A stretch of DNA of 64,000 nt from an uncultured Gemmatimonadales bacterium (GTDB lineage: Bacteria; Gemmatimonadota; Gemmatimonadetes; Gemmatimonadales; Gemmatimonadaceae): the NCBI GenBank assembly GCA_963851265.1, contig CAWKNZ010000012.1, positions 32,001 to 96,000 on the forward strand, given 5' to 3'. The notes under the pieces were generated by a model. The model searched no databases. It saw only the letters and a list, made by a program, of their open reading frames with translations, and was not told where the DNA came from. Both the position numbers and the translations under genes were made by a program. This document shows positions 1-64,000 of this stretch, piece after piece (the first letter of the stretch is position 1; each line of letters begins with the position of its first letter).

Positions 1-1187
1 CGGCCGTCCGCCTCGTACGCCGCGAGCTCGACCGGCGACCCCGGCGGCGCGTACTTGTTCGCGTTCTCGACCAGATTCCCCAGCACGCGCAGCGTCGCCA
101 CGAAATCGAACGTTCCCGCGAGCGGCGGATCGTCGTCGGGCAACTCCACCGCGAGCACGCGCGCCGGGACGGTCTCGTGTCCGGCGCCGAGCACGCCCGC
201 CACGTGCCGCCGCAGGGCGCCGACCACGTCCTCCGCCGTGTTCAGCTCGGGGTGCACCACCACGCCGCCGGCGCGCGCGCGCGAGAGGTCCAGCAGGTCC
301 GTCACCATGCGCGCCAGCCGGTCGGCCTGCTCCTCGACCATGGCCGCGTTCGCGTCGCCGCGGCGCGCACTCTCGTGGGCGAGCGCCTTGATCGTCGTGA
401 GCGGGGTGCGCAGGTCGTGCGACACGGCCGCGAGCAGCTGGTCCTTCATCCGGTCGGCCTCGCGCAGCGCCTCGGCGTGTTCCGCCGCGGCCACGAGGCG
501 CACGCGCTCGACCGCGAGCGCGGCGTAGTGCGCGAGCGCTTCGAGGAACGCCGCCCGCGACGCGTCGAGTCGGATGCCGCCCGGCCGCGCGAGGCGCAGC
601 GTGCCCACCGGCCGCCCCGAGATCCGCAGTGGCACGACCGTGTCGTCGGGCGCGCGGTCCGCGGCAGTGCCTAACGTGGCGAGCGGGGCGCCCGCCGCGT
701 CGTAGATCGCGCAGCCGTCGAGCGCGAGCGTGCGCGCGAGCACCGCGGCCACCGCGCCGACCGCCGCCTCGGCCCGCCCGGCGCTCAACGCCTCGGCCCC
801 CACGGCGGCCAGCTCGCCCACCTCGCTCGCCCGCCGCCGAGCCGCCAGCGCTTCGCGGCGCGCGGCCTCCAGCAGCTGCGTGGCGACGCCGGCCGTGACG
901 AAGAACGCCACGAGCACCACCCAGTCGAGCGGCTTCGCGACGGTCAGCGTGTCGAACGGCGGCTGGAAGAAGTAGTCGACCAGCGCCGCCGCCTCGGCCG
1001 CGAGCACGAGGCCGAGCGCGCGCCCCTCGGTCGCGCTGCCCGCGAGGACCACGAGCAGCAGCGGCAGCACCACGTGCACCTGGTCGATGTGCCCGCGGCG
1101 CACGGTGAGCGCGACCGACATGATCGCCGGCACGCTCGTCCACCCCGCCCAGATGCCGAGCCGCCGCGCGGCGCGGCCGGGCCGCAC
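1..1187 (-). CDS. KdpD-like membrane sensor histidine kinase (DUF4118 TM domain, GAF-like region, HisKA, HATPase); 3' end runs off the window
   Basis: Manual translation of the minus strand from GTG 1187: TM segment with VDYFFQPPFDTLTVAKPLDWVVLVAFFV (DUF4118-like), H-box LLAAVSHDLRTPLTTIKA, N-box RVLGNLVENANKYAP. Starts immediately after the response regulator stop. Absent from the ORF track because it is open-ended. Confidence 0.85.
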   Translation of the reverse strand, partial: MRPGRAARRLGIWAGWTSVPAIMSVALTVRRGHIDQVHVVLPLLLVVLAGSATEGRALGLVLAAEAAALVDYFFQPPFDTLTVAKPLDWVVLVAFFVTAGVATQLLEAARREALAARRRASEVGELAAVGAEALSAGRAEAAVGAVAAVLARTLALDGCAIYDAAGAPLATLGTAADRAPDDTVVPLRISGRPVGTLRLARPGGIRLDASRAAFLEALAHYAALAVERVRLVAAAEHAEALREADRMKDQLLAAVSHDLRTPLTTIKALAHESARRGDANAAMVEEQADRLARMVTDLLDLSRARAGGVVVHPELNTAEDVVGALRRHVAGVLGAGHETVPARVLAVELPDDDPPLAGTFDFVATLRVLGNLVENANKYAPPGSPVELAAYEADG

Positions 1188-1188
1188 G

Positions 1189-1971
1189 CTACGCGGACCG
1201 CGGCGGTTCGAACCGGTAGCCCACGCCGGGCTCGGTCACGATCAGCTCGGGCGACGACGGCACCCGCTCGATCTTGCGCCGCAGGTTGGTCACGTGCACG
1301 CGCAGGTACTGCGCGGCGTTCCCGAACTGCCGCGCCCACACGGCGTCGAAGATCTGCTTGTGCGTCAGCGTGCGCCCGGCTTCCGCGGCGAGCGTGCGGA
1401 GGATCCCCCACTCGATGGGCGTGAGCCCCAGCGATTGCCCGCCGCGCGTGGCCACGCGCCGGTGGAAGTCGATCACGAGGTCGCCCACGCGCAGCGGCGT
1501 GAGTTCGCTCGCGCCCGCGGCGCGCATGTTGGCCCGGCGCAGCTGCGCGCGCACGCGGGCCGCGAGTTCGCCCGGGCCGAACGGCTTCGTGAGGTAGTCG
1601 TCCGCGCCGGCGTCGAGCAATCGGATCTTCTCCTGCTCGGAATGCCGGGCCGACAACACGAGAACCGGGGCGGGCGACCAGCTCCGCAGCTCGCGGCACA
1701 CCGTGATGCCGTCCATGTCGGGGAGCCCGAGGTCGAGCACGACGAGGTCGGGCCCGCGCGCCGCGGCGGTGTCGAGCGCGTCGCGGCCGGTGGCCGCCTC
1801 GAACACCGTCGCGCCGAGCTCCTCGAGCACGTGGCGCACGGCGTGGCGGATCTGCGGCTCGTCGTCGACGACCAGCACGGTCGGCGGAACCGGCACCGCG
1901 CCGGCGGGGCTGGCGGCCGCGACGGCCGCCGACACGGGACCCGAGGAAGCGAGGAGCGACGAATCGGTCAC
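1189..1971 (-). CDS. kdpE: KdpE-like OmpR-family response regulator
   Basis: VLVVDDEPQIR, DLVVLDLGLPDMDG, GADDYLTKPFG, YLRVHVTNLRRKIE..P.LIVTEPGVGYRF. Start GTG 1971 is a guess; the upstream part of ORF 1189..2364 is probably non-coding. Confidence 0.9.
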   Translation of the reverse strand: MTDSSLLASSGPVSAAVAAASPAGAVPVPPTVLVVDDEPQIRHAVRHVLEELGATVFEAATGRDALDTAAARGPDLVVLDLGLPDMDGITVCRELRSWSPAPVLVLSARHSEQEKIRLLDAGADDYLTKPFGPGELAARVRAQLRRANMRAAGASELTPLRVGDLVIDFHRRVATRGGQSLGLTPIEWGILRTLAAEAGRTLTHKQIFDAVWARQFGNAAQYLRVHVTNLRRKIERVPSSPELIVTEPGVGYRFEPPRSA

Positions 1972-2078
1972 GGCGTCAGGGGCAAGAGGACACGCAGGAA
2001 TCTGGCGATCCGAAGGGCAGGTGCCAGTCCCGGCGCCCGCAAGGTTCCCAAGCGGGCGCCGCCGTCCGTGACGAAACG

Positions 2079-2162
2079 CGTGCGGGGTGCCGCTCCCGTG
2101 TTGGAGCGGCACCCCGCACGGCACCCGTGCAACGCGGCGCGTGTCGCGCGCCGCGTTGCACG
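2079..2162 (-). terminator. Two adjacent perfect stem-loops (18-bp and 16-bp stems) downstream of the lipoprotein gene; probable terminator or RNA-stability element
   Basis: cgtgcggggtgccgctcc (2079-2096) / ggagcggcaccccgcacg (2103-2120); cgtgcaacgcggcgcg (2126-2141) / cgcgccgcgttgcacg (2147-2162). Confidence 0.6.
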
Positions 2163-2170
2163 CGCCGGGG

Positions 2171-2599: not shown

Positions 2600-2636
2600 C
2601 TGTGGATCTCCACGTGGTGAGGGGTGGTAATCGTCG

Positions 2637-3653: not shown

Positions 3654-3870
3654 GCCGGATCTACATGTAGAGCCTGCCGCCGACCCGTCATCATCCTCCG
3701 CCGCACCCGATCACGTTCTACTCGACTGTGGAGCGTTCGTGCTCCCACACGCCGGCTCCGAGCAATGCGCGTACCGCGATGTCGATCGGTGCCAAATTAT
3801 CGGCGGGCTCCGCCACAGGCTCCGTCCAACGTCTTCGTTACCGGGCGCTTCCGTCCTTCACCGCCGCCGC

Positions 3871-5358
3871 ATGTCCCGCAATCCCGCCGAGTCCGCGCTC
3901 CTCACCGACCTCTACCAGCTCACGATGGCGCTCGGCTACTGGCGCGCGGGGCGCGAAGCGCGCGAGGCGGCGTTCCACCTCTACTTCCGCACGGCCCCGT
4001 TCGGCGGCGGATACACGGTCGCCTGCGGGCTCGATGCCGCCGCCGACTACCTCGACGGCTTCCGCTTCGCGTCCGACGAGCTCACCTACCTCGGCACGCT
4101 CGAGGACGCCGACGGCCGCCCGCTCTTCCCCGCCGCCTTCCTCGACCACCTCGGCGCGGTCCGCCTCGCGCTCGACGTCGACATGGTCGCCGAGGGCGCG
4201 GTCGTGTTCGCCAACGAGCCGCTCGTGCGCGTGCGCGGCCCCATCCTCCACGCCCAGCTCGTCGAGACCGCGCTGCTCGCGCACGTCGGGTTTTCGACGC
4301 TGGTCGCGACAAAGGGCGCGCGCGTCGCGCTCGCCGCCGGCGGCGACGAGGTGCTCGAGTTCGGGCTGCGCCGCGCCCAGGGCCCCGACGGCGGCCTCGC
4401 GGCCAGCCGCGCCGCGTACGTCGGCGGGTGCGGCGCCACGAGCAACGTGCTCGCGGGCATGAAGTTCGGCATCCCCGTGCGCGGAACCCACGCCCACAGC
4501 TGGGTGATGAGCTTCGACAGCGAGGCCGAAAGCTTCGCCGCCTACGCCGACGCGCTCCCCGGCAACTGCGTCTTCCTCGTCGACACGTACGACACGCTCG
4601 AAGGCGTACGCCACGCGGTCGAGGCGGGCCGCGCCCTCCGCGCCCGCGGCCACCAGCTGTTAGGCATCCGCCTCGACTCCGGCGACCTCGCCTACCTGAG
4701 CCGGGCCGCGCGCCGCCTGCTCGACGACGCCGGCTTCGCCGACGCGCGCATCCTCGCCTCCAACGACCTCGACGAGCACCTGATCGAGAGCCTCAAGCGC
4801 CAGGGCGCCGCGATCGCCGTGTGGGGCGTCGGCACGCGCCTCGTCACGGCCTACGACCACCCCGCGCTCGGCTGCGTCTACAAGCTCACCGCGATGCGGG
4901 ACGCCGACGGCGCATGGCAGCCGCGCGTGAAGGTGAGCGAGCAGACGGCGAAGACGACCACGCCCGGCGTCCTCCAGGTGCGGCGCTACCGCGACGGCGC
5001 GTCGCCCGGTGGGGCGTCCTTTACCGGCGACATGCTCTACGACGAACTCGGCCCGCCCGCACCGGGCGCGGCGACGATGGTCGACCCGCTCGACCCGACG
5101 CGCCGCAAGCGCTTCGCGGCCGACGCACCGTACGACGAGTTGCTCCAGCCGGTGTTCGCGCGGGGCGTGCGCGTGCGCGACGCGGTGCCGCTCGCGGCGG
5201 CGCGCGAGCGGGCGCGGGGCGAGCTCGCGGCGTTGCCGGAGGGGACCACCCGGCTCGCCAACCCGCACCGCTACCCGGTCGGGCTGGAGCGCGGGCTGTA
5301 CGAGCGCAAGACGGCGCTGGTGCTCGCGGCGCGCGGCGTGGACGCGCCGGCAGGCTGA
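3871..5358 (+). CDS. pncB: Nicotinate phosphoribosyltransferase
   Basis: LLTDLYQLTM, LEFGLRRAQG, GTHAHSWVM, LVDTYDT, GIRLDSGDL, ASNDLDE, VYKL. Confidence 0.95.
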   Translation: MSRNPAESALLTDLYQLTMALGYWRAGREAREAAFHLYFRTAPFGGGYTVACGLDAAADYLDGFRFASDELTYLGTLEDADGRPLFPAAFLDHLGAVRLALDVDMVAEGAVVFANEPLVRVRGPILHAQLVETALLAHVGFSTLVATKGARVALAAGGDEVLEFGLRRAQGPDGGLAASRAAYVGGCGATSNVLAGMKFGIPVRGTHAHSWVMSFDSEAESFAAYADALPGNCVFLVDTYDTLEGVRHAVEAGRALRARGHQLLGIRLDSGDLAYLSRAARRLLDDAGFADARILASNDLDEHLIESLKRQGAAIAVWGVGTRLVTAYDHPALGCVYKLTAMRDADGAWQPRVKVSEQTAKTTTPGVLQVRRYRDGASPGGASFTGDMLYDELGPPAPGAATMVDPLDPTRRKRFAADAPYDELLQPVFARGVRVRDAVPLAAARERARGELAALPEGTTRLANPHRYPVGLERGLYERKTALVLAARGVDAPAG

Positions 5359-5382
5359 GTGCCGCGCGCTGACGGCCGCGCG

Positions 5383-5565: not shown

Positions 5566-5662
5566 GGGCAGTCTCCGGGGAGGGGAAATGGCGAGGGGGC
5601 GGGCCGGCGCGGCGGCAGGCGCGGCCCGGACCGGCGAATGTAGGGCGCGCCGCGCGGCCCGC

Positions 5663-6742
5663 TCACACGCCGCGCAGCCGCACCACCGCCCCCTCGCGCG
5701 CCGACCGCAGCGCAGCCTCGATCACCTCGAGCCCGGCGGCCGCGTCGTCCACCGACACCGGCGGCGGGGCCCCGTCCCGGATCGCATCGCGTACCCCGGC
5801 GTAGAACTCGCCGTACGCCCCGGCCTCCGTCCGCACCGCGCGCACGACGTCCCCCGCGCCGAGCGTCCCCCACGCCGTGTCGGGCTCCTCGCCCCACCCC
5901 GCGCCGCCCGGCCGGCCGCCGCGCGCGAGCGCGTCCTCCTGCGGATCGAGCCCGAATTTGACGTACGCCCCGCGGCTGCCTAACACGCGGAACCGCGCCC
6001 CCGGCTGCCCCGCGAGCGCGCTCGCCATGAGGTGCGACCGCACCCCCGACGCGTGCGTGAGCGCGACGAACACGTCGTCGTCCACCGCCGCACCCTCCGC
6101 CCCGCCCGGCCGCCGCCGGTCCCGCTCGGCGTACACCTCGCGCGCCGCCCCGAAGAGCACGATCGCCTGGTCGACGAGGTGCGTGCCGAGGTCGAAGAGC
6201 AGACCCGTCGCGGCCCCCTCGCCCCCCACCTCCTTCCACCCCGCGCGCGGCACCGGCCGCCACCGGTCGAAGCGCGACTCCAGGCGGTGCACGTCGCCTA
6301 ACGCGCCCGCCGCGACGAGCGCGCGCACCGTGCGGAAGTCGCCGTCCCACCGCCGGTTGTGGAACGGCACCAGCACCACCCCGCGCGCCCGCGCCTCCGC
6401 CCCGAGCAGCCGCGCCTCGCCCGCCGTCGGCGCCAGCGGCTTGTCGATCACCGCGTGCCTCCCCGCCGCGACCGCCGCCCGGGCCAGCGGCACGTGCGTC
6501 GCGTTCGGCGTCGTCACCACGACGAGGTCGACCGGCGCGAGCCCCTCGCTCCCGTCCCACAGCGCCTCGGGCCGTGCGACCACGCGCACGCCGGGGTACG
6601 CGGCCTCCGCCTTCGCGCGCCGCTCGGCGTCGCGGGTGACCACCGCCGTCAGCTGCATGCCCGGCGTGGCCGCGACGAGCGGCGCGTGAAAGACCGACCC
6701 GCCGAGGCCGAAGCCGACCACGCCGACGCGCAGGGTGTTCAT
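5663..6742 (-). CDS. Gfo/Idh/MocA family oxidoreductase (YdgJ/IolW-like)
   Basis: RVGVVGFGLGGSVFHAP, TPNATH, VIDKP, PFHNRRWDGDF, LFDLGTHLVDQA; ATG overlaps the upstream stop (ATGA). Confidence 0.92.
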   Translation of the reverse strand: MNTLRVGVVGFGLGGSVFHAPLVAATPGMQLTAVVTRDAERRAKAEAAYPGVRVVARPEALWDGSEGLAPVDLVVVTTPNATHVPLARAAVAAGRHAVIDKPLAPTAGEARLLGAEARARGVVLVPFHNRRWDGDFRTVRALVAAGALGDVHRLESRFDRWRPVPRAGWKEVGGEGAATGLLFDLGTHLVDQAIVLFGAAREVYAERDRRRPGGAEGAAVDDDVFVALTHASGVRSHLMASALAGQPGARFRVLGSRGAYVKFGLDPQEDALARGGRPGGAGWGEEPDTAWGTLGAGDVVRAVRTEAGAYGEFYAGVRDAIRDGAPPPVSVDDAAAGLEVIEAALRSAREGAVVRLRGV

Positions 6743-9186
6743 CGTGGAACGGGGTTGGGAACGGGAACATGGCGCGCCGCGTCCGCCGCGCCGTCGGACA
6801 CGATGACCTCGGCCGCGGCGACCTCGGCCGCGGCGACGCGCGCCGCGCGACCACGCGCGTCGGCCAGCCGGGCGGCGGCCGCGCGCACGCCCACCGCGTG
6901 CCGCGCGACGCGCACGAGCGCCGCCCACGCGGGCACCTCCGGCACGCGCCGTTCCGCCGTCTCGAGCACGGCACGCGTGACCCCGCCCGAGTTCCCCAGC
7001 AGCGCCGCGAGCGCGGGGGGCAGTGAGGCCGGCGCCCGTTCTTCGCGCACCGCGGCCGCCGCGTCGGCGAGCACCGCGTCCACGTCCGCGCCGAGTGCCG
7101 CGAGGCGGTCGCGGCCGCCCGGAGCCGGGCCGAGCGCCGCGAGCGCCGTCGCGGCGCTGTTCACGCGCCGCACCCGCGCCAGCAGCGCGAGCGTCGCCTC
7201 CGCCCGCGCCCCGCGCCCGCCCGGCTCCGCCATGAAGCGGCCGAGCGCGTCCTCGCCCGCGGTTGCCGCGAGCCCCGCGCGGCGCCGCGCCGCGGCCACC
7301 GACTCGGGCGACGGCACCGCGGTCGCGCCGTCGGCGTCGGCCCCATCGTCCCCCACCGCGCGCGCCGCCCGCCGCGCCGCGAGCGCGGCGTAGGCCCGCG
7401 CCGCCTCGGCCGCCGCGGCCAGCGTCCCCGGCAGCGAACGCGCCTCCCACGTCGGCCACAGCACGAGACTCGCGACCACCGCCACCAGACCGCCCACCAC
7501 GGTGTCGGCCGCGCGCACCCCCGCGAGTGCCCAGTTGCCGGGCGCGGGCTGCGCGATGAGCACGAATACCGGGGTGAGGAAGAACGTGAACACGCCGTAG
7601 TGCACCGCCCGCAATGCCACCGCCGCCGCGGCGAGCGGGAACACCACGGCCGCGATCAGCCGCGGGTCACGCAATGCGGCCGCGAGCACCGCCGCGACCA
7701 CCCCGCCCAACACCGTCCCGAGCACGCGCGCCGTCGACCGCCGGAGCGTCATCCCGGCCGAGGGCTGGAGCACGATGAGCGTGGTGATCGTGAGCCACGG
7801 CCCGCGCGCGATGTGCAGCCCCGCGCCGAGCGCGTGCGCCCCCGCCGCCGCCGTCCCGACCCGGAGCGCGTGGCGCAGCGTCGGCGTGTCGACGTCGCCT
7901 AACGCGCGGCGCCAGCGCGCCAGCCCGCGCAGCCGCCGCGTCGCGGGCGCGGCGCGGCGCTCCCGCCGCCCGCGCGCCACCGCCCGCACCCCCGCCAGCA
8001 GCGTGTCTTCGCCACCGCTCGCGAGCGTCGCCGCCACCTCGGCCGCGCGCTCGACCTCGCCGGCAAGCTGCTCGACGAGTGCGGCCGCGTGCCCCAGGGC
8101 GTCGGACGCCCCGGCCACGACGGCAGCCTCCGCCTCGAGCGCGGCCAGCGCGGGCGGACGGCGCCCCGCCCGCGGCCCGGGCACGATCGCGAGTGCCAGC
8201 TCGTCGAGCGCCGCCGACGCCTGCCCCAGTGCGGCGCCCAGTGCGGCGCCCAGCGCGGCGCCGAGCGCGGCGGCCGCGCCGTTCGGCACGGGCGCGGCGT
8301 CGGCCACCTCCGCCGCTTCCGCGAGCACGAGCAGCGTGCCGAACACGAGGTCGGCGCCGTCGAGCAGCAGGGCGAGATCGTCGCCGCGCGGCGCGGCACC
8401 CAAGCGCCCGCGGCGCGTGGCGAGCAGCACCGAGCGCCCGGCCTCGATCACGGCACGCACCCGCGGGTGCTCGCGTCGGGCGAGCGCGGTGTAGCGGTCG
8501 GCCGCGGGCCCACCACCGCCGACCGCCGCGGCGATCTCGCCGGCGAAGTGCGCGAGTGCGTGGTAGGCGTCGGCCACCCCGTGCCGCGCCGCGCCGTACG
8601 GGCGCACCGGCCATATGGCGAGCGCGAGGAGCATCGTCCACAGCCCGCCGCCCGCGATCATCACCCCGCCGTGGATCGCGGCGTCCGCCTGCGCCGCGGG
8701 GCTCGCGAGCGCGGCCACGAAGGTGGCCGCAACGAGAATGCCGAGCGTCGTTCCCGCGTCGCCGAGCACGCGCAACAGCGCGGTGCCGGCCGCCCAGCAG
8801 AAGACGAGTGTGGCGACGACCAGGACGGCGGCCCACGTCGCGTCCGCCGCACGCAGCGCCACCGCCACCCCCGCGGCCCGCGCCCCCGCGGCGTAGGCGA
8901 CCCCGCCGAGCAGCACGTACGCGCCCATCGTGCGGGCGCGCGTGCGCGTGACGCCGCCGACGTCGGCCATCGCGGCAAACCACCCCCCCACGGCCGCCAG
9001 CACGTACCCGCGGTTGCCGGTCGTGTAGGCGAGCGCCAGCGGTGCGGCCGTGCCCGTGGCCGCGCGGAGGCCCGCGTGCACCGCCGTGAGGGTGACGTCG
9101 CGGCGGAGGCGCGCCGAGACCGCTCGCACCGAAGCACGCAACACCGGAGCGCGCCCCGGCCGGGGCACCCGCACGGGCGACGACAT
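6739..9186 (-). CDS. FUSC/YccS-family inner membrane protein
   Basis: N-terminal TM bundle, then LRHALRVG..WLTITTLIVLQPS..RVLGTVLGG..RAADTVVGG..LWPTWE. Confidence 0.88.
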   Translation of the reverse strand: MSSPVRVPRPGRAPVLRASVRAVSARLRRDVTLTAVHAGLRAATGTAAPLALAYTTGNRGYVLAAVGGWFAAMADVGGVTRTRARTMGAYVLLGGVAYAAGARAAGVAVALRAADATWAAVLVVATLVFCWAAGTALLRVLGDAGTTLGILVAATFVAALASPAAQADAAIHGGVMIAGGGLWTMLLALAIWPVRPYGAARHGVADAYHALAHFAGEIAAAVGGGGPAADRYTALARREHPRVRAVIEAGRSVLLATRRGRLGAAPRGDDLALLLDGADLVFGTLLVLAEAAEVADAAPVPNGAAAALGAALGAALGAALGQASAALDELALAIVPGPRAGRRPPALAALEAEAAVVAGASDALGHAAALVEQLAGEVERAAEVAATLASGGEDTLLAGVRAVARGRRERRAAPATRRLRGLARWRRALGDVDTPTLRHALRVGTAAAGAHALGAGLHIARGPWLTITTLIVLQPSAGMTLRRSTARVLGTVLGGVVAAVLAAALRDPRLIAAVVFPLAAAAVALRAVHYGVFTFFLTPVFVLIAQPAPGNWALAGVRAADTVVGGLVAVVASLVLWPTWEARSLPGTLAAAAEAARAYAALAARRAARAVGDDGADADGATAVPSPESVAAARRRAGLAATAGEDALGRFMAEPGGRGARAEATLALLARVRRVNSAATALAALGPAPGGRDRLAALGADVDAVLADAAAAVREERAPASLPPALAALLGNSGGVTRAVLETAERRVPEVPAWAALVRVARHAVGVRAAAARLADARGRAARVAAAEVAAAEVIVSDGAADAARHVPVPNPVPR

Positions 9187-11607: not shown

Positions 11608-13407
11608 ATGACCCGCCCTGCTGCATCCTCCCCGTCCACCGCCGACGCGGTCCTCTGGACCGCGCTCGACCAGGGAGTTCGGGCGCTACCGCTCCCCGCG
11701 CCCGCGGGCCTCTGCGAACTGCCGCTCGCCCGGCTTTCGCGCTACGAGCCCAAGCCCGACCCCGCGACCGGCCGGCTGGCGGAAGAAGAGTGGCTGCATG
11801 TCCACCGCGTGCGCGCGCTCAGCGGCCAGTGGTTCGCCGTCCGTATCGCCGGTGATGCGGCGCTCGGCCTTCCCCGCGCCGGCGACTGGCCGGTCCTGAT
11901 GGCCGTCGTGCGCCTGTTCGACGAGGCCGGATGGGCGAGCAACACCCTCTCCGACGTCAGCATCCGCCGCCTCAACGCGACGATGGGCGTCACCGGCGGC
12001 GGGAAGATGATCCGCCGCGTCCGCGACGCCCTCCTCCGCTTCGCCCAGGTCCGCGTGCTGCTCGCGCCGATGGCGGCGACCGCCGACCCGGCCACCGCCC
12101 TCTCCGAACTGCTCGCGTCCGACGAGGCGAACGCGGCGTCCGCCGACGCCCCCGCCCCGGCCCTCTGGGCCCCCGCCGCGCTCGACCGCACGGCGGCCCG
12201 CGGAGCCCGCGCCCGCCGTGCCGGCGCCGACCCCGCGTCGGGCCCGGCGATGGGGCGTGGCACCGCGACCGGCGTGCTCGACGTGGCGTGGCGCGACGAC
12301 ACGCTCGACCGCATCACGCTCGCCGACGTCTGGCGTCCGCGGGCCGGCACCACGGCGACCACGTGGATGGACTACGAGCGCTACTTCGCGCTGGTCGATC
12401 CGGTCGCGCAGCGTCTCTACCAGCTCTACGCCGGCGCCGCCGCGCGCGGCGAGCCGCTCCCGTTCGAGCACGACCTCGAATGGCTCCGCTCCGCGCTCGG
12501 CCTCTCCCCGCGCTTCAAGCGCAGTCGGGTGCTCGAGTACCTCGCCGGAGCGACCGCCGAGCTGCGTGAGGCGGGCATCCTCGGCGACGTGCTCATCGAG
12601 CCGCCTGGGCGCGCCGCCGACCGCCTCGTCGCGATGCCGGGGCCGGTGCTCGAGGCCGCCCGCCTCTTCGCCGGGCTCTCGCTCGAAGTGCCGCGCGACG
12701 CGCGCGTGCAGCTCGCCGCGCTGCAGGCGTTAGGCGTCCACCGCGCCGAGGCCGAGCGGCTGCTGCGCGCCGACCCGGCGCAGGTGTACGAGGTGCTGTG
12801 CTACGTGCTCTACGCGCGCCGGCACGAGCCCGACGCCATCCGCGACCCGGGCGCGTACGTCCGCCGCGCGGTGACCGAGGGCTACCGCTTCGCGAAGCCC
12901 GGCTACCAGACGTGGCGCGCCGGCGTCCAGCGCCGCTCGCTCGACCTCGTGCGCGCCCGTGCCGACCGCCCCGGCGCTGACCGCCCCGGCGCCGACCGCC
13001 CGGTGCCGGCCGGAGCGTCCGCCGCCCCCGACGTGCCATCCCCGAGCGCGCCCGCATCCGTTCCAGCGCCCGAGCCCGCGGTTCCCGTCGCGCCGTCGCC
13101 GGCGGGCGCGGAGGCCGACGCGGCCGCCCTGTGGCGTGGCGTGGCCGACGAGGTGCGCCGGCGTGTGGGCCCGCGCGAGTTGCGGCTGCTCTGGGTCACG
13201 ACCCAGCTGCACCGCGTGGCCGGCGTCCGGCTCGAGGGGGCGGCGCTCGTCTGCGCCGTGCCCGACCTGGAGCTACGCGCCTGGGCCGCGAACGATGCGG
13301 GCCGCGCCCTGCTCGGCGACGCGGTCGCCGCGCTCACGGGCGGCAGCGTGACGCGCGTGATCGCCCGGGTGCCGGGCGACGTGGATCGGAGCGTCGACGA
13401 CGGCTGA
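11608..13407 (+). CDS. Plasmid/chromid-type replication initiator protein (RepA/RPA-like) with C-terminal DnaA N-terminal-like domain
   Basis: GLCELPLARLS (cf. NLxEFP), GLPRAGDWPVLMAV, IRRLNATMGVTGGGKMIRRVRDALLRF, MDYERYFALVDPVAQRLYQLY, DLEWLRSALGLS, IRDPGAYVRRAVTEGY; C-terminal LWRGVADEVRRRV..RLEGAALVCAVPD..RAWA. Confidence 0.72.
   Translation: MTRPAASSPSTADAVLWTALDQGVRALPLPAPAGLCELPLARLSRYEPKPDPATGRLAEEEWLHVHRVRALSGQWFAVRIAGDAALGLPRAGDWPVLMAVVRLFDEAGWASNTLSDVSIRRLNATMGVTGGGKMIRRVRDALLRFAQVRVLLAPMAATADPATALSELLASDEANAASADAPAPALWAPAALDRTAARGARARRAGADPASGPAMGRGTATGVLDVAWRDDTLDRITLADVWRPRAGTTATTWMDYERYFALVDPVAQRLYQLYAGAAARGEPLPFEHDLEWLRSALGLSPRFKRSRVLEYLAGATAELREAGILGDVLIEPPGRAADRLVAMPGPVLEAARLFAGLSLEVPRDARVQLAALQALGVHRAEAERLLRADPAQVYEVLCYVLYARRHEPDAIRDPGAYVRRAVTEGYRFAKPGYQTWRAGVQRRSLDLVRARADRPGADRPGADRPVPAGASAAPDVPSPSAPASVPAPEPAVPVAPSPAGAEADAAALWRGVADEVRRRVGPRELRLLWVTTQLHRVAGVRLEGAALVCAVPDLELRAWAANDAGRALLGDAVAALTGGSVTRVIARVPGDVDRSVDDG
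12961..13002 (+). repeat. In-frame 15-bp tandem repeat (ADRPG x~3) in the Rep linker
   Basis: gccgaccgccccggc gctgaccgccccggc gccgaccgcccg. Confidence 0.8.
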
Positions 13408-13471: not shown

Positions 13472-14965
<1,494 letters not shown>

Positions 14966-14973
14966 CGTCACGC

Positions 14974-21580: not shown

Positions 21581-21731
21581 GCGTCGGCCCATGTCGAGCC
21601 CGCCGCCGCGGGCGCGCGTCGCCCAACCGCCACGAAATCGTCGCGCCGCGCGGCCGGCCGAGGCACCGATTCTGCCGTCCCCGCCGGCGCGCGGGCGAGG
21701 GCGCCCGCATCACACCGGGAGGAACGGGACC

Positions 21732-22220: not shown

Positions 22221-22257
22221 GGCGGGCCGCCCGGGGCCGTGCGGCGGCGCGGGGTCG

Positions 22258-25486: not shown

Positions 25487-25516
25487 CCCGCGGGACGGCC
25501 TGGCCCGCGGGACCGC

Positions 25517-32584: not shown

Positions 32585-32658
32585 CACGGTCCTCTCTCGA
32601 GTGTTGGGGGGGACGGAGCGACGCGATGCGCCCGGACGTGGCTCCCGTCACACACGGC

Positions 32659-45683: not shown

Positions 45684-45696
45684 CGGTCTGTCCCGC

Positions 45697-48339: not shown

Positions 48340-49953
48340 ATGCTCCACACCCGCCGCGAAGCGCTCGCGCAGCTCGCCGCCCTCGTCACGTTCCCGGTCG
48401 CGATGCCGGGCGTGCGGCCGGTCGGTGTGTGGCGCGCGCCCGGCCGCGACCCGCTCGACGGCACGATCGCCGACTACCAGGCCGGCCGCCGCGCCGGCGC
48501 GTGGACCGCGGCGGAGGTCACCGCGCGCGCGCTCGACCGCTGCCGCGCGGCGGGGGCGGCCTGGCACGCCATCGACGCCCTCGCGAGCACCGCGCCCGCG
48601 GAGGCCCGCGCGGCCGACGCACGTCTGCGCGCCGGCCGCGTGCGCGGGCCGCTCGACGGCGTGCCGGTGTTCGCCAAGGCCATCTACGACGTGGTCGGCC
48701 TGCCCACCACCGGGTCCAACGCCGAGTGGGCGCGCCTCTTCCCCGACCCCGTCGGGCGCGACGCGATCGAGGTCGCCCGGCTGCGCGCGGCCGGCGCCGT
48801 CGTCCTCGGCAAGACCGCGGCGGACGACTTCGCCTACCACGGCAACGGCACGAGCAGCCTCACGGGCCAGGTGCGCAACCCGCACGACCCCACCGGCGCC
48901 CGCACGCCCGGCGGGTCGAGCGCCGGCTCGGCCGTCGCGGTCGCCGCCGGACTGGCCTTCGCGGCGTTAGGCACCGACGACGGCGGATCCAACCGCATCC
49001 CCGCGCAGTTCACGGGCGTCGTGGGGATGAAGCCGACGTTCGGCCTCGTGCCGCGCACGGGCGTGATCCCCACCTGGCCCTACCTCGACACGCACGGCCC
49101 GCTCGCGCGCACCGTGGCCGACGCCGCGCTCCTCCTCGCCGCGGTCGCCGGCGCCGACGCGTCGGACCCGCTCTCGGCGGGCGCGCTCGCCGACGGCGCG
49201 ACCGCCGGGTTCCGCGACGACGCGCTCGCCGGCGTGCGGCTCGGGATCGTCGAGGCGCACGTGCCGCGCGCGCAGATGACCGCCGGGGCGCTCGAGGCGT
49301 GGGACCGCGCGTTAGGCGACCTGCGCGCCGCCGGGGCGGCGGTCGCGCCCTTCGCCCCCGCGGTCACGCGCGTGGACTACCGCGACGCGTTTGCCGCCGC
49401 GGCGCGCGCCCGCGGCGACGTCGCCGTCGACGCGAACGCGCCCGCGCCCACGGCCAACGCCCTGCTGCGCTACTTCGCCGGACGCACGGCCGACCCGGAC
49501 CTCGCCGACCCGCGCGCGGCCGTGCGCCGCGGATACCCCGCGTACCGCGCCTTCTACGACGTGCTTCCCGCCACGTTCGAGGCCTGCGAGCCGCTGCTCG
49601 ACCGCCCGATGGCCGGGGACCCCGCGGGGCACGCCTTCGCCCGCTCGCGCGCCGAGGTGGTCGCGGCGCTCGCGGCGTCGATGCGCGCGGCCGGCGTCGC
49701 GGCGATGGTCTACCCGACGATGCCCTTCAACGCGCCCCGCGCCGTCGACCACTGGCCGGACGTCCGCACCGCGCTCGGCTACGGCAACTGGCTCGGCCTG
49801 CCCGAGGTGTCGGTGCCGGCCGGACTCGGGGCCGACGGCATGCCCGCGCTCAACGTCTCGGTCGTCGGGCTCCCGGGCGACGACGCCCGCGTGCTCGCGC
49901 TGGCCCACGCGTACGAGCGGCAGTCCCGGCGGTTCGTCGCGCCGCCGCGGTGA
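48340..49953 (+). CDS. Amidase-signature family protein (Tat-like N-terminus)
   Basis: MLHTRREAL; GPLDGVPVFAK, PGGSSAGS, GTDDGGSNRIPA, GMKPTFG. Confidence 0.9.
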   Translation: MLHTRREALAQLAALVTFPVAMPGVRPVGVWRAPGRDPLDGTIADYQAGRRAGAWTAAEVTARALDRCRAAGAAWHAIDALASTAPAEARAADARLRAGRVRGPLDGVPVFAKAIYDVVGLPTTGSNAEWARLFPDPVGRDAIEVARLRAAGAVVLGKTAADDFAYHGNGTSSLTGQVRNPHDPTGARTPGGSSAGSAVAVAAGLAFAALGTDDGGSNRIPAQFTGVVGMKPTFGLVPRTGVIPTWPYLDTHGPLARTVADAALLLAAVAGADASDPLSAGALADGATAGFRDDALAGVRLGIVEAHVPRAQMTAGALEAWDRALGDLRAAGAAVAPFAPAVTRVDYRDAFAAAARARGDVAVDANAPAPTANALLRYFAGRTADPDLADPRAAVRRGYPAYRAFYDVLPATFEACEPLLDRPMAGDPAGHAFARSRAEVVAALAASMRAAGVAAMVYPTMPFNAPRAVDHWPDVRTALGYGNWLGLPEVSVPAGLGADGMPALNVSVVGLPGDDARVLALAHAYERQSRRFVAPPR

Positions 49954-52395: not shown

Positions 52396-52419
52396 GCGCG
52401 TGTTAGGCTGTCTGCCGGG

Positions 52420-53880: not shown

Positions 53881-55272
53881 TCAGAGGCGGTTGAAGCCCG
53901 CGAGCGCCGCCACCTTGTACGCTTCGGCCAGCGTGGGGTAGTTGAACACGGTGTCGCGGAAGTACTCGATCGTGCCGCCGAGGGCGAGCACCGCCTGCCC
54001 GATGTGGATCAGCTCCGTGGCCCCGTCGCCGATCGCGTGCACGCCGAGCAGGCGCAGCGTGTCGGGGTCGAAGAGCAGCTTGAGCATCCCCGTCTCGTCG
54101 CCGAGGATCTGCCCCTTCGCGAGCTCCTCGTACTTGGCGATCCCCACCTCGTACGGCACCCGCGCCTCGGTGAGCTGCTCCTCCGTCTGCCCGACCATCG
54201 ACATCTCGGGCACGGAGTAGATGCCGTAGGGCAGCAGCTCCCGCGCGGCGACCGTCGCCGGCGCGCCGAACATGTGGGCACCCGCGAGCCGCCCCTGCTC
54301 GTTGGACGACGAGGCGAGCGACGGGAAGCCGATCACGTCGCCCGCGGCGTAGACGTGGGGCACCGCGGTCCGGCCCCACGCGTCCACGGCGAGCTTGCCG
54401 CGCGCGTCGGGCGTTAGGCCGGCCGCGCCGAGGTTCAGCAGGTCGGTGTTCGCCTGACGCCCGACGGTGTAGAGCAGCGCGTCGCTGTGCACGCGTTTCC
54501 CGCTCTCGAGCAGCGCCTCCACGCGGCCCCGCTCGTCGAGGCGGACCGACGCGACCGTCTCGCCGAGGCGGAACGTGGAGCCGCGCCGCCGCATGTGGTA
54601 GAGCAGGCCGTCGATCAGCTCGCGGTCGACGAAGTCGAGCAGGGTCGGGCGCTGATCGATGATCGTGACCTTGATGTCGAGCGCGGTGAACATCGACGCG
54701 TACTCCAGCCCGATCACCCCCGCGCCGACGACGATGAGCTCGCGCGGGAGATCGGTCACGCCGGGCAGCTGGTCGGCGTCGAAGATGCGCTCGCCGTCGA
54801 GCGGGATCTGGGTGCTGCGGGCGGCGCGCGTGCCGCACGCGATGAGCACGTGGGCCGCGCGCACCAGGCTCGCGGCCCCGGCCGACGAGAGCACCTCGAT
54901 CGTGTGCGGGTCGACGAAGCGCGCGGTGCCCGCGAGCGTCGTGATCCCGTTGCGCCGGAGCTGGTTGCGCACCACCTCGGTTTGCCGGCCCACCACCGCG
55001 TTCACCCGGTGGGCGAGATCCTTGGCGGAGATGCTGCTGCTGACGACGTAGTCCTTGCCGTAGAACGTGCGCTGCCGGAACCCGCTGAGGTAGAGAATCG
55101 CCTCGCGCATCGTCTTGCTCGGGATGGTGCCCGTGTGGATGCACACGCCGCCGACCATCTCCTGCCGGTCGATGATCGCGACGCGCCGCCCGAGCTTGGC
55201 CGCGGCGATGGCGCCCTTCTGCCCCGCCGGGCCGCTGCCGATCACGACGAGATCATAGTCGTACGTGTCCAT
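53881..55272 (-). CDS. sthA: Soluble pyridine nucleotide transhydrogenase (Si-specific)
   Basis: VIGSGPAGQKGA, GGVCIHTGTIPSKT (CxxxxT), GAGVIGLEYAS, GDVIGFPSLAS, ELIHIGQ, FNYPTLAEAYKVAA. Confidence 0.93.
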   Translation of the reverse strand: MDTYDYDLVVIGSGPAGQKGAIAAAKLGRRVAIIDRQEMVGGVCIHTGTIPSKTMREAILYLSGFRQRTFYGKDYVVSSSISAKDLAHRVNAVVGRQTEVVRNQLRRNGITTLAGTARFVDPHTIEVLSSAGAASLVRAAHVLIACGTRAARSTQIPLDGERIFDADQLPGVTDLPRELIVVGAGVIGLEYASMFTALDIKVTIIDQRPTLLDFVDRELIDGLLYHMRRRGSTFRLGETVASVRLDERGRVEALLESGKRVHSDALLYTVGRQANTDLLNLGAAGLTPDARGKLAVDAWGRTAVPHVYAAGDVIGFPSLASSSNEQGRLAGAHMFGAPATVAARELLPYGIYSVPEMSMVGQTEEQLTEARVPYEVGIAKYEELAKGQILGDETGMLKLLFDPDTLRLLGVHAIGDGATELIHIGQAVLALGGTIEYFRDTVFNYPTLAEAYKVAALAGFNRL

Positions 55273-58800: not shown

Positions 58801-59204
58801 GGGCACCAACGGGAGAGGGGTGAGCGTCGGACGGTCCGCGGCCACGCACCGCCTCCGACGCAGGATGTACGCAGGATGTACGGTGGTGTCGAACCGGGAG
58901 GGCAGCGGCGCGAGCCGGCGTCGAACACGACGATGCCGGAACGACCGGGCGCGATCGGCGGCGCAGACTCGTGCACCATCATACGTGATGCGCGTCCGGG
59001 GAGGATCGGTGCGCACGACGGAACCACTTCCGGCGGACCGGACGGTGCCAATCGCGTCATCCCGGGGGCGGGCATTGCCCGCCGCCGGGCGTCGACGTAC
59101 ATACGGACCAGTCCCCCTGCGCGAAGCGCCTAACACGATCGCATCGCATGCACACCGCCGGTCCGTCATCCCCGCCCGCGCCGCCGATCGCCCGCGACGT
59201 CCGT

Positions 59205-59383
59205 AACCGGGAGCTGGTGCTCCGGCTGCGGGCGTCGGGGGTCGCCCCGTCCACACCACCGTGCTCGGCGAGCGGTTCGTGATCCACGTCGCGATCACGA
59301 ACCACCGCACGCGCCGCCCCGGCCTCGGTCGCTTCACGGGCGCGGCGCGCGCGACCGGCGGCGAGCTCCGGCGCTTCGCCTAA
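59205..59383 (+). pseudogene. Frameshifted C-terminal remnant of a group II PLP-dependent (aromatic amino acid-type) decarboxylase
   Basis: NRELVLRLRASGVAPS, then frameshift, then TTVLGERFVIHVAITNHRTRR..GGELRRFA*; no start codon or upstream body. Confidence 0.6.
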
Positions 59384-59406
59384 CGGAACCGCTCCCCGCC
59401 CCGGCG

Positions 59407-60334: not shown

Positions 60335-61231
60335 ATGTCGCCAACACCCTCGCAGCCCTCCGGCCACCTCCGACGCGTGGCGGTCTTCACGACCGATCCT
60401 GAGGGCGGCAATCCCGCCGGCGTCTGGGTCGGCGACACCCTGCCGGATGCAGCCGCGATGCAGCGCATCGCCGCCGACGTCGGGTACTCCGAGACCGCGT
60501 TCGTGGCCCCGGCAGGCGGCACGCAGCGCGAGGTGCGGTACTTCAGCCCCGAGGCGGAGGTCCCGTTCTGCGGTCACGCCACGGTGGGTGCCGGAGCCGT
60601 GCTCGGCGAGGCGAACGGGAACGGGACGTATCACCTGTCGACGTCGGTCGGTGTCGTTCCGGTCGTCGTGCGCACGCGTGACGGCGTGCGGGAGGCGTCG
60701 CTCACGTCCGTCGTCCCCCGACACACGGCCGCCGACTCCGTACTCGTCGGCGACATCCTCGACGCGCTCGGCTGGGACGCCAGCGAGCTCGATCCTGCCA
60801 TCCCGCCTGCGCGCGCGTACGCCGGGGCCTGGCACCTCGTCCTCGCCGCCGCGGCGTCGGAGCGGCTGGCGCGACTGACCTACGACTTCGACCGCGTCAA
60901 GCGGCTCATGCTCGACGCCGGGCTCACGACCCTGCAGCTCGTCTGGCGCGAGTCGCCGACGGTGTACCACGCGCGGAACCCGTTCCCCGTCGGCGGCGTG
61001 GTCGAGGACCCTGCCACCGGCGCGGCGGCCGCGGCGCTCGCGGGCTACCTCCGCGACAGCGGACTCCTCGCCGTGCCGGCGCGGGTGCACGTGCGCCAGG
61101 GAGAGGCGATGGGGCGGCCGAGTCACCTCGTCGTCGACGTCCCGGCGCAAGGCGGGATCGTCGTCACCGGTGCCGTGGTCCCCATGCCGGACCCGCATGA
61201 GCCCGCCCGTGCGGCCTCGGACGGCCGTTAG
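60335..61231 (+). CDS. PhzF family isomerase
   Basis: GGNPAGV, GYSETAF, RYFSPEAEVPFCGHAT, VVEDPATGAAA, QGEAMGRPS. Confidence 0.93.
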   Translation: MSPTPSQPSGHLRRVAVFTTDPEGGNPAGVWVGDTLPDAAAMQRIAADVGYSETAFVAPAGGTQREVRYFSPEAEVPFCGHATVGAGAVLGEANGNGTYHLSTSVGVVPVVVRTRDGVREASLTSVVPRHTAADSVLVGDILDALGWDASELDPAIPPARAYAGAWHLVLAAAASERLARLTYDFDRVKRLMLDAGLTTLQLVWRESPTVYHARNPFPVGGVVEDPATGAAAAALAGYLRDSGLLAVPARVHVRQGEAMGRPSHLVVDVPAQGGIVVTGAVVPMPDPHEPARAASDGR

Positions 61232-61317
61232 GCATTCGACGTTGGCTGCGACTCGGCGCGTGCATCGGACTCCACCGACGACCGCGGTTGCGGGCGCCCC
61301 ACTCACCCGTTCTCACC

Positions 61318-62284: not shown

Positions 62285-62355
62285 CGGTGTGGCGAGAGGG
62301 GCAAGTAGGGGTGGCGCGCACGCGGCCCGGACGCTCCGCGTACGCGATCCGTGCG

Positions 62356-63483
62356 TCACGCGGCGGCGAGCGCCCGCCCGATGTCCTCGATCAGATCGGC
62401 GGCATCTTCCAGTCCCGCGCTCATGCGAACGAATCCGGGCGGCACGGCATCGCCGCCCCACCGTGCGCGCCGTTCCGCCGTCGTGTGCGTTCCCCCGAAG
62501 CTCGTCGCCTCGCGAACGATCCGGCACGACGCGAGGAACCGCTCCGCGGCCGCGCGATCGGCCAGCGTGAAGCTGACCACCGGGCCGAAATACTGCATCT
62601 GCCGCGCGGCGGTCACGTGGGCGGGATCGGCCGCGAGCCCCGGATAGCGCACCTGCTGCACCGCCGGATGCGACTCCAGGAACTCCGCGATCGCCTGCGC
62701 GTTCGCGCAGCTCCGCTGCAGTCGCACGTCGAGCGTGGCCAGCGAGCGGTGCGCGAGCCACACTTCCATCGGGCCGGGCACCGCCCCCGTCCGCGTCCGC
62801 CACTCGCGGAGCGTGTCGGCCCACGCGGCGTCGCGCACCGCGACGTGACCGAGGAGGAGGTCGCCGTGGCCGGTCAGCGCCTTCGTGTCCGAGGCGACCG
62901 AGAAGTCCGCGCCGAGCGCGAGTGGCACCTGCCCGAGCGGCGTCGCCGTGGTGTTGTCCAGGGCCACGAGTGCCCCCGCCTCGTGGGCCGCCGCGGCGAC
63001 GGCCTGGACGTCGCACACGTCCAGCGTCGGATTCACCGGGCTTTCGATCCACACGAGGCGCGCGCCGCGGACGTTCCCGGCCGCGGCGGCAGCCGTCGGG
63101 ATTTCGCGCACCTCCACCCCGTTGGGCGCGAGGTGCTCGCGAACGAGCGCGCGAATGGTGTAGTAGCCGTCGCTTGGAAGGACCAACACATCCCCGGGGC
63201 GCAGCACGACGCCGAGCACGGCGGCCGCGGCGGCCATCCCCGATGCGAAGGCAACGGCCGATCCGCCTTCGAGGTCGCCGAGCGCGGCCTCGAATCGGGT
63301 CCACGTCGGATTGTGGTATCGGCCGTACGTGTACGCCGTCTCGGCCGGGTCGCCCGCGGCGTGGTACACGGCGGCGAAGGTCGGTCCGGGGAGGAACGGC
63401 ATCCCCTGCTCGGGCGCGGGCACGCCCGCGTGGACCACACGCGTGGCGGGCCGGGGCCGAGGCGGTACGGGTGGTTCCGACAT
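62356..63483 (-). CDS. Cystathionine gamma-lyase / Cys-Met metabolism PLP enzyme
   Basis: YGRYHNPTW, FASGMAA, WIESPVNP, LDNTTATP, SDTKALTGHGD (PLP Lys), ATSFGG, RMSAGLED. Confidence 0.9.
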   Translation of the reverse strand: MSEPPVPPRPRPATRVVHAGVPAPEQGMPFLPGPTFAAVYHAAGDPAETAYTYGRYHNPTWTRFEAALGDLEGGSAVAFASGMAAAAAVLGVVLRPGDVLVLPSDGYYTIRALVREHLAPNGVEVREIPTAAAAAGNVRGARLVWIESPVNPTLDVCDVQAVAAAAHEAGALVALDNTTATPLGQVPLALGADFSVASDTKALTGHGDLLLGHVAVRDAAWADTLREWRTRTGAVPGPMEVWLAHRSLATLDVRLQRSCANAQAIAEFLESHPAVQQVRYPGLAADPAHVTAARQMQYFGPVVSFTLADRAAAERFLASCRIVREATSFGGTHTTAERRARWGGDAVPPGFVRMSAGLEDAADLIEDIGRALAAA

Positions 63484-63584
63484 GAGACGTCCGGTCTGCG
63501 GGAGGAATCGTTGCCGAGTGGTGAGACGCGCCGGGTGCGCGACCGCCTCGCGCGATGCCTGCACGCGGAACGCGGCGGTGACCG

Positions 63585-64000
63585 TCAAGCGCCTAACACG
63601 TCGCGCAGGACGTCGACGCCCTGCCGCAGGGCGACCTCGTCGAGCGGCGCGTATCCCAGCAGCAGCGCGCCGTCGGCCGCGCGCGGCGCGACGTGGTACA
63701 TCGAGAGCGGCGGCGCTTCCACGCCGCGCGCGGCGAGCGCCGCCGACACCGCCGCGTCGCTCCGCCCCGCGGGAAGCCAGCCGAGGAGATGCAGGCCGGC
63801 CGCCGCGGGACGGAGGGTGACCCGGCCCCGCAACTCGCGTTCGGCGAGCGCCACGAGCGCCGCCTGGCGGGCCGCGTACAGCGTCCGCATCCGCCGGACG
63901 TGCCGCGCGAAGTGCCCGTCGATGATGAAATCCGCGAGCACCGCCTGCTCGAGCGGCGACGCGGAACCGGCCGCGAACGCGCGCGCGCGTGCGAACGGTT
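63585..64000 (-). CDS. MocR/GabR-family regulator (PLP aminotransferase domain), C-terminal part; 5' end beyond the window
   Basis: EQAVLADFIIDGHFARHVRRMRTLYAARQ, AGLHLLGWL, LLLGYA. Confidence 0.88.
   Translation of the reverse strand, partial: PFARARAFAAGSASPLEQAVLADFIIDGHFARHVRRMRTLYAARQAALVALAERELRGRVTLRPAAAGLHLLGWLPAGRSDAAVSAALAARGVEAPPLSMYHVAPRAADGALLLGYAPLDEVALRQGVDVLRDVLGA

Follow-up and report, generated by a model that had tools for sequence, protein, structure and literature searches.

The 64,000 bp of DNA considered here (the window; G000:C12:32001-96000, ~75 % GC), which belong to assembly GCA_963851265.1 of an uncultured Gemmatimonadales bacterium (G000; 4.60 Mb in 12 contigs, 73.5 % GC), raise the question of why one exact heptamer, GTTAGGC or its complement GCCTAAC, recurs in them in otherwise unrelated genes. 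This heptamer is referred to below as the word, with Y-GTTAGGC-R as its extended form and CGTTAGGC (8-mer), GCCTAACG, CGTTAGGCG and YGTTAGGC as further spellings. Twenty-nine exact copies are present in the window, fifteen on the plus and fourteen on the minus strand, while one hundred dinucleotide-preserving shuffles of the window gave a mean of 1.98 and a maximum of 5 copies, with 0/100 reaching 29. A first-pass annotation, made from the letters of the window, had reported a dispersed heptamer with 29 exact copies, and the recount agrees with it in number and position. Its tally of fifteen copies per orientation included one variant, while the recount distinguished two one-off variants that retain TTAG, both on the minus strand (GTTAGAC at 41896 and GTTAGGA at 37297). 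Similarly, it had placed about 30 of some 33 TTAG/CTAA tetramers in the word and a pyrimidine before 28 of 30 copies; the corresponding counts are 29 of 33 tetramers, and C before 22 and T before 5 of the 29 copies. Over the whole of G000 the word occurs 1,762 times (885 + 877 on the two strands), accounting for 71 % of all TTAG/CTAA, where an order-3 Markov model predicts 126.5 (O/E 13.9, z 145). Among 7-mers it ranks first by a wide margin, CGTTAGGC leads the 8-mers (O/E 24 under the same model), and no second hyper-abundant word was found among the genome-wide word counts. The word is thus present about 1,800 times in the genome, through genes, stop codons and spacers, and against the codon habits of the host.

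The figures for frames, stop codons and spacing within genes rest on our own crude gene calls, based on GC content at third codon positions (GC3), rather than on annotation (3,856 genes in G000 at 90 % coverage, with 9.6 % of the genome non-coding). Genome-wide, 971 copies read as xxG-TTA-GGC, 229 as xxG-CCT-AAC, 79 as xGC-CTA-ACx and 31-32 as GTT-AGG-C, while 189 lie across a gene end and 263 are intergenic. Twenty within-gene shuffles of synonymous codons predict 42.7, 24.2, 12.6 and 2.0 copies for the four open frames, respectively, and these frames are thus enriched 6- to 23-fold. The word therefore survives both the Markov and the codon-shuffle comparison that the first-pass annotation had proposed, as well as a third, on the context of TTA codons, since GGC follows 980 of the 1,310 TTA codons in the genome. 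The excess of one orientation on the coding strand can be ascribed to coding opportunity, which that annotation overlooked: Leu-Gly is far commoner than Pro-Asn, and the word takes up 9.1 % of 10,677 xLG and 14.6 % of 1,569 xPN contexts. Stop codons are supplied by 205 copies in total, comprising 122 of 438 TAA stops (28 %; GCC-TAA-C) and 83 of 927 TAG stops (GT-TAG-GC). Copies are evenly distributed along gene length in G000, with a density of one per 3.2 kb in genes vs approximately one per 1.7 kb in non-coding DNA. Enrichment extends to four frames, both orientations, stop codons and spacers, and the carrier genes in the window are mutually unrelated, among them amidases, oxidoreductases, histidine kinases, a chemoreceptor and a glycosidase. 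The signal therefore operates at the level of DNA and not via protein or tRNA, as had been argued from the window. Over quintiles of gene GC3, density climbs from 1.50 to 5.00 copies per 10 kb and the use of xLG contexts from 3.0 % to 12.9 %. This gradient is the opposite of a composition-based prediction and would fit accumulation in long-resident or much-recombining genes.

The core of the word is sharply specified, with G preceding TTAGGC in 1,762 of 1,794 cases in G000, where one-off variants occur at background with the exception of GTTGGGC (2.0x) and GTAAGGC (2.8x). Position -1 is mostly C (.79) or T (.14) and position +7 mostly G (.54) or A (.22), with C (.19) and T (.05) making up the remainder, while beyond these two positions no flank conservation is seen around the dispersed copies of G000. 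The same flanks are found in the relative G012 (-1 C.80/T.18; +7 G.54/A.22) at a genomic GC content of 60 %, and they therefore form part of what is read.

Local gene-strand bias served as a proxy for replication direction. Along contig C2 the word changes orientation over hundreds of kilobases, and these switches track gene-strand bias. The Leu-Gly form was counted at 209/2,777 (7.5 %) in leading-type vs 85/1,290 (6.6 %) in lagging-type genes (p 0.30), and the Pro-Asn form, which has the opposite orientation, at 45/401 (11.2 %) vs 21/217 (9.7 %; p 0.59). The lack of strand polarity noted in the window thus holds once gene strand is allowed for. Copies are, furthermore, not independently placed. 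Only 59 gaps of 50-300 bp were observed where an exponential distribution predicts 158, while those of 500-3,000 bp are more numerous than expected. Among the 190 genes with at least two in-frame words, 21 pairs lie less than 300 bp apart, compared to 64.1 ± 6.0 when copies were re-dealt among each gene's own Leu-Gly and Pro-Asn contexts, with 0/1,000 simulations giving a value as low. Avoidance of neighbouring rare codons was considered as the cause and rejected, since such pairs are depleted both among copies of the same type (16 vs 49.3) and among those of mixed orientation (5 vs 14.4). By contrast with these in-frame copies, of nineteen pairs within 60 bp seventeen lie between genes or at gene ends; six are inverted, and several of the inverted close pairs form perfect hairpins between convergent genes.

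Turnover of the sites was followed in alignments of ~70 kb each of two congeners, G004 and G001, at 76-89 % identity. The word was kept at 13 of 23 G000 sites in G004 and at 14 of 30 in G001, against background fractions of identical 7-mers of 0.35 and 0.32, respectively, while of the sites of these congeners only 13/51 and 14/51 recur in G000. Where the word is absent, the most frequent alternatives are GCTCGGC (with the usual CTC-GGC), GTTGGGC and GTTCGGC. Gain and loss of sites thus proceed by substitution, for which two steps are often needed. Genomes were classed as rich where the word exceeded twice the reversed-word control on both strands. By this measure thirteen of 41 relatives are rich, two intermediate and 26 poor (the word-poor G011 is counted here and in the 41-genome tallies for IntI, ComEC, N6_N4_Mtase, the Eco57I-like protein and the PilQ type), and all five genomes of the host genus are rich. 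Counts of CGTTAGGC on both strands range from about 170 to 6,360 in genomes where they are raised, with most relatives at baseline; the richest is G012, with 6,360 copies in 5.1 Mb. A scarcity of TTA/CTA serving a primase or similar was rejected as an explanation, this richest genome being only 60 % GC. The phylum was also sampled evenly with 201 genomes (including G011, G084, G123 and G202, each word-poor and none of them carrying a claim by itself), of which seven are rich: five in the family of the window and two in genus g71 of a second family, the other genera of which are poor. None of the 62 genomes from nine other families is rich. The rich genomes thus belong to scattered genera of one order. 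The closest named record to the MnmG protein of G000 is that of a Gemmatirosa metagenome-assembled genome (MAG; 85 % identity), with 61-72 % identity to those of other Gemmatimonadaceae and Gemmatimonadales MAGs. An unrelated tandem heptamer, rather than a hyper-abundant word, is found in G035, a word-poor genome of another family. Between positions 100001 and 300000 of its contig C4, clusters of (GGTAAGA/GGTGAGA)n occur approximately once per 10 kb, often as inverted pairs 70-150 bp apart, and represent a repeat family distinct from the word.

Among known systems the word behaves most like the DNA uptake sequences (DUS) of the Neisseriaceae and the uptake signal sequences (USS) of the Pasteurellaceae. 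Our tentatively preferred explanation, which we regard as quite possibly correct, is that Y-GTTAGGC-R may be a self-type word of this kind, accumulated via biased DNA transfer and recombination under a putative reader. A protein of a DNA-transfer route would prefer double-stranded DNA bearing the exact word, the most likely route being natural transformation with uptake via a type IV pilus, ComEA and ComEC. Alleles carrying the word would be taken up and recombined more often than those lacking it, so that word-creating point mutations would spread in ordinary genes wherever the protein tolerates them, while a second copy near the first would add little and copies would space out. We infer that transfer bias would be the force and uptake the route. 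The basis for the uptake-like explanation comprises the abundance of the word, its frame independence, lack of polarity, spacing, turnover and recognition sequence, its patchiness among genera and the uptake genes described below, with support also drawn from the GC3 gradient, the close and inverted pairs at gene ends and the literature on the highly iterated palindrome 1 of cyanobacteria (HIP1; GCGATCGC). The DUS and USS are likewise single exact short words with hundreds to thousands of copies per genome, carried equally on both strands and in all frames against codon habits, denser outside genes and sometimes paired in inverted orientation at gene ends; each is common to a genus, and its sites turn over by point mutation (PMC2817400, PMC2397512, PMC3630211 and PMC7811141). 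HIP1 resembles the word as a hyper-abundant exact octamer in genes that is conserved above background and non-randomly spaced, and of which the function was long obscure and is now suspected to lie in gene transfer (PMC5861425, PMC13756078, PMC4390886), with a recent tie to transformation (PMC13756078; preprint 10.1101/2024.09.10.611283). There are also differences. HIP1 is a palindrome with two orphan methylases and has been correlated with a type IV secretion system, while the word is asymmetric, no methylase tracks it and VirB4 is found in only 2 of the 41 genomes. The DUS and USS fill a family, whereas the word-rich genera are scattered through one order. Even spacing is a known property of USS.

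The search for a reader covered about a dozen hand-picked families, in the 41 relatives or in G000 alone, none of which tracks the word. The uptake tool-kit of G000 includes ComEC, DprA, a PilQ-type secretin with pilMNO, three PilT-family ATPases and a ComEA-like gene of the HHH_3 type, located directly ahead of pilB (MshEN domain), pilT and pilC (C7:759615-764498). The dedicated receptor of the Neisseria DUS is the minor pilin ComP. In G000 a minor-pilin-like gene is situated just upstream of pilM (C5:28224-29351), with a further family member at C9:35636-36394, and the encoded proteins combine a pilin-type N-terminal helix with a glycine-rich, solenoid-like C-terminal domain without Pfam match. 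The long form was found in 8/8 rich pil loci vs 4/11 others (nineteen informative loci, one short contig being excluded), while relatives with short forms lack the solenoid-like domain. A profile of this domain, however, matched 143 of the independent 201 genomes, including 4/7 rich vs 139/194 others, and left all five g71 genomes and G130 unmatched.

Several of these results weigh against the uptake-like explanation. The minor pilin was rejected as word receptor on the 201-genome distribution, the ComP_DUS profile (PF16732) has no match in G000, although it also matched no control genome, and the uptake genes are equally present in word-poor relatives (ComEC in 40/41, PilQ type in 40/41) and do not separate them from rich ones. 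With an exact core of 7 bp and two soft flanking positions, the word is shorter than the 9-12 bp of DUS and USS and would discriminate self far less. Where DUS-type systems have dialects, no alternative hyper-abundant word was found in the word-poor G006 (400 kb) or G021 (200 kb), nor does the tandem repeat of G035 provide one, so that three poor relatives sampled over 200-400 kb are without a dialect. The host phylum differs from those of DUS and USS in that no report of natural competence within it was found in the literature searched. Finally, the exact match of the word to the integron core, discussed below, is under the uptake-like explanation either a coincidence or an unexplained link. 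As the word is shorter, rich and poor genomes have the tool-kit alike, and both the uptake preference and the receptor are putative, the word is not filed here as an uptake sequence. The searches returned no publication with CGTTAGGC, GCCTAACG or YGTTAGGC, and none linking Gemmatimonadota with DNA uptake sequences.

A feature without counterpart in the known cases, and overlooked in the first-pass annotation, is that the word reads as a canonical integron core. The R' and R'' boxes of integron recombination sites are GTTRRRY and RYYYAAC, with crossover after the G, and the R'' box of attC(aadB) is given as GCCTAAC (PMC12901181); GTTAGGC/GCCTAAC fits these exactly. The likeness extends to related genomes. 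In the cassette arrays of G025, G027 and G029, all of the same order, 54 attC R' boxes read C-GTTAGGC, with -1 C at.94 and +7 G.50/A.28/C.17/T.06, close to the preferences of the dispersed word, and in the word-poor G027 three arrays hold 40 of the 65 CGTTAGGC copies. G000 itself carries a chromosomal integron with cassettes, and attC-like sites at C6:925 and C6:1592 and a further six of 96-121 nt at C10:188936-211190, near a contig end. The integrase gene intI of G000 is interrupted by a large serine-recombinase gene (from ~C6:3558 onward), which leaves fragments at C6:5244-6044 and C6:3005-3166 (-), while only a degraded piece is found in G001 and a frameshifted copy in G012. Small cassette-like ORFs, including one with a BrnT-type toxin domain, occur in C6:1-6300. 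The spelling is the same letter for letter, down to the preferred C before and purine after. Either this agreement of core and flanks is a chance event, of roughly 1 in 1,000, or it represents a new link of integrons with a process acting across the genome.

One such link would be that the word is read by the integron machinery, either IntI or a derived or partner protein, with the copies serving as genome-wide R-box, attG-/attI-like landing or titration sites. The shared spelling and +7 preferences, the cassettes of G000 with such attC sites, and the insertion of cassettes by IntI at double-stranded genome sites (10.1101/2022.09.11.507474) are all in its favour. We nevertheless consider it fairly improbable, as IntI above the family cut-off is found in 8/13 rich, 0/2 intermediate and 17/26 poor genomes, and so does not follow the word, and is broken in G000, G001 and G012. 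In the attC boxes T at -3, C at -2, G at +8 and C at +9 are additionally fixed, which is not the case around the dispersed word, and the dispersed copies lie in frame in ordinary genes, without fold partner, L boxes or cassette boundaries. In G000, GCCTAAC...GTTAGGC pairs show no excess at 50-200 bp, and RYYTAAC is found 40-140 nt upstream of the word in only 21 matches genome-wide, representing ~13 distinct places over both strands, most of them in cassette regions. Published attG sites, moreover, require only GWT, and we know of no mechanism by which integrase sites multiply within genes. It is also conceivable, with a lower probability still, that the candidate reader is a DNA-uptake or transfer receptor with a specificity adjusted to the integron core. 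In that case cassettes would be harvested preferentially by transformation, as each attC carries the word twice; this agrees with a report that the chromosomal integron of Vibrio cholerae is supplied with cassettes by transformation (PMC12614218).

Of the three candidates put forward in the first-pass annotation, an uptake or self-recognition tag fits best, while a modification site has lost support. That the word is a target of DNA modification (methylation or phosphorothioation), its frequency raised by methylation-linked repair as proposed for HIP1, is now very unlikely. An exact 7-mer without symmetry is the kind of target typically found for type IIG or type III methylases, and G000 encodes a single intact Eco57I/MmeI-type methylase-domain protein of 1,141 aa (C7:582089-585511). 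Enzymes of this type are usually patchy in distribution. The protein is, however, found in 40 of the 41 genomes, rich and poor alike (38-82 % identity), and its identity to the G000 protein is not sorted by richness (52-53 % in the rich G008 and G012; 50-54 % in the poor G006, G011 and G020). Many of the matches in relatives contain one in-frame TGA or TAG. The HIP model does link iterated words to methylases (PMC4390886), but the comparison of methylase distribution with the word, suggested in the first-pass annotation, shows no family that follows it. C5 (PF00145) and Dam-type (PF02086) methylases and DndC have no match in G000, the N6_N4 family none in G000, G001 and G002, and N6_Mtase is present only as broken pieces in G000 and unmatched in G001, G002, G008, G017 and G018; the latter two families are unlinked to the word over the 41 genomes. 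Pairing with very-short-patch repair is likewise not seen, with Vsr in 4/41 genomes, all poor (0/13 rich), and no C5 match in G000. The third candidate, in a wider form, is that the word is kept site by site for a chromosomal protein, whether nucleoid- or domain-organising, marking strand or self in repair or defence, or HIP1-like, with one site per stretch. This is possible, if on the whole unlikely. Spacing repulsion independent of orientation, the retention of G000 sites above background and the sharpness of the seven core positions agree with it, and HIP1 has been argued to be kept by selection in a nucleoid-type role (PMC5861425). It is at odds with the fast turnover, in which only about a quarter of the G004 and G001 sites are common to G000, and with a range from baseline in most relatives to 6,360 copies, which would be unusual if the word had a housekeeping function. 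The families tried yielded no candidate protein, and the absence of the word around the gidA-parAB region of G000 (see below) is not a conserved exclusion zone.

A polar signal of the Chi or FtsK-orienting polar sequence (KOPS) type, used in recombination repair or segregation, is highly improbable. Chi (read by RecBCD/AddAB) and KOPS (read by FtsK) are, like CGTTAGGC, over-represented 8-mers spread through genes, with an abundance comparable in the case of Chi, and the long orientation switches on C2 could suggest such a role. Chi and KOPS are strongly leading-strand skewed, however, which the word is not: the C2 switches follow gene-strand bias, and a polar signal would shift the two orientations oppositely, whereas both are slightly, and not significantly, higher in leading-type genes. 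Least credible is an origin of the word as a side effect of codon usage, tRNA supply or mutation bias, or through errors of assembly. Three quarters of TTA codons do lie inside the word, but this reading has already been refuted by the tests named in the first-pass annotation, given the enrichment in four frames, stop codons and spacers alike. Furthermore, the usual CTC-GGC is two substitutions away from the word, G000 possesses a tRNA-Leu(UAA) gene, and the same word with the same flanks recurs at 60 % GC and in assemblies of 1 to 960 contigs. Across one copy a soil-metagenome contig matches exactly, and the copies in 20501-30500 show no variant letters, with the limits that the metagenome runs may derive from the source sample, and so are not independent, and that their coverage of the window is patchy.

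By our gene calls the copies in the window comprise thirteen TTA-GGC, five CCT-AAC, one GTT-AGG-C, one xGC-CTA-ACx, five stop-codon and four intergenic copies. The first-pass annotation had given sixteen TTA-GGC, four CCT-AAC, one CTA-frame, seven stop-codon and two intergenic copies; the two differ at 21576, 29222 and 59378, where gene starts or small ORFs are uncertain. The TTA-GGC copies on the plus strand are located in a nicotinate phosphoribosyltransferase-like gene (4659..4665), a gene without Pfam match (12729..12735), an amidase gene (30595..30601; kept in G003 and G004 despite differing flanks), a molybdopterin oxidoreductase gene (41113..41119), a GFO/IDH/MocA oxidoreductase gene (45560..45566) and a second amidase gene, which carries two copies 345 bp apart (48966..48972 and 49311..49317). 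Those on the minus strand are found in minus-strand ORFs at either end of the window (669..675, as xxG-TTA-GGC, and 63591..63597), twice in another GFO/IDH/MocA oxidoreductase gene at a distance of 318 bp (5978..5984 and 6296..6302), in a FUSC_2 transporter gene (7897..7903) and in a family-2 glycosyl hydrolase gene (34424..34430; kept in G003 and G004, with GCCGAGC in G001). The same hydrolase gene carries a plus-strand copy which reads CCT-AAC on the minus coding strand (35348..35354; kept in G003, ATTAGGC in G001), as do those in a histidine phosphatase gene (21133..21139; kept in G003) and in a gene without Pfam match, where G precedes the word (28829..28835). CCT-AAC is further read from minus-strand copies in an aldose 1-epimerase gene (15279..15285, as xxG-CCT-AAC) and a DUF892 gene (21947..21953), for which G003 has GCCCAAC and a 292-nt soil-metagenome contig is identical across the copy. 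The GTT-AGG-C copy on the plus strand at 21576..21582, kept in G003, falls in the called DUF892 gene, the start of which is uncertain, and had been read as a stop codon; xGC-CTA-ACx is represented by a plus-strand copy on the minus coding strand of a pyridine-nucleotide disulphide oxidoreductase gene (54413..54419). Stop codons previously placed at 14963, 25517, 32659, 45681 and 61229 were all recovered. Two minus-strand copies, reading GCC-TAA-C on the plus strand, provide the TAA stops of a histidine kinase gene (14960..14966) and of the oxidoreductase gene that carries the 45560 copy (45678..45684), while GT-TAG-GC provides the TAG stops of genes for a chemoreceptor (25515..25521, minus), a TPR protein (32657..32663, minus) and a PhzF-like protein (61227..61233, plus). 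The intergenic copies are those at 29222..29228 (plus; by our calls, upstream of an amidase gene), 52402..52408 (plus), 59128..59134 (minus) and 59378..59384 (minus; by our calls, previously the TAA stop of a small ORF). The GC skew of the window flips sign near 18-20 kb, where the cumulative skew has its minimum, and the majority of genes to the left of ~11 kb are on the minus strand.

The largest word-free gaps of the genome are not islands. The longest, of 45 kb (C1:182876-227962), has no copies where ~8 in-frame ones are expected for its GC3 class, and holds gidA, parA, parB and mnmE, an origin-type neighbourhood, while a 22-kb stretch holds infC-rplT-pheST-zapA-rny. A conserved exclusion zone at the origin region was rejected, as the 45-kb gap is not word-free in G004 or G012; it is partly mirrored in G001, with three copies in the 35 kb that match it. 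A third word-free stretch, of 21 kb (C8:248137-269544), contains a ParA-like gene beside two large proteins without Pfam matches, one of which gives a weak DnaA_N match, and may represent the partition module of an integrated element.

Comparable words are, to our knowledge, known from very few groups, namely the Neisseriaceae, the Pasteurellaceae and the cyanobacteria, and the present one would add a fourth such case in a widespread soil phylum. The word accounts for the unusual TTA and stop-codon usage of these genomes, and can be used as a marker to bin them and to recognise foreign DNA in them. Owing to its on/off distribution among genera, phylogenetic correlation should be unusually well suited to tracing the reader, and the sharpest contrast is offered by g71, a rich genus within a family that is otherwise poor. 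Culture-based tests look feasible via relatives in Gemmatirosa, a genus with a cultured species. Were a receptor tuned to the integron core to prove the reader, the flood of copies in the core genome would be a by-product of its bias acting on own-kind DNA, and natural transformation and integrons would be tied at the level of DNA recognition.

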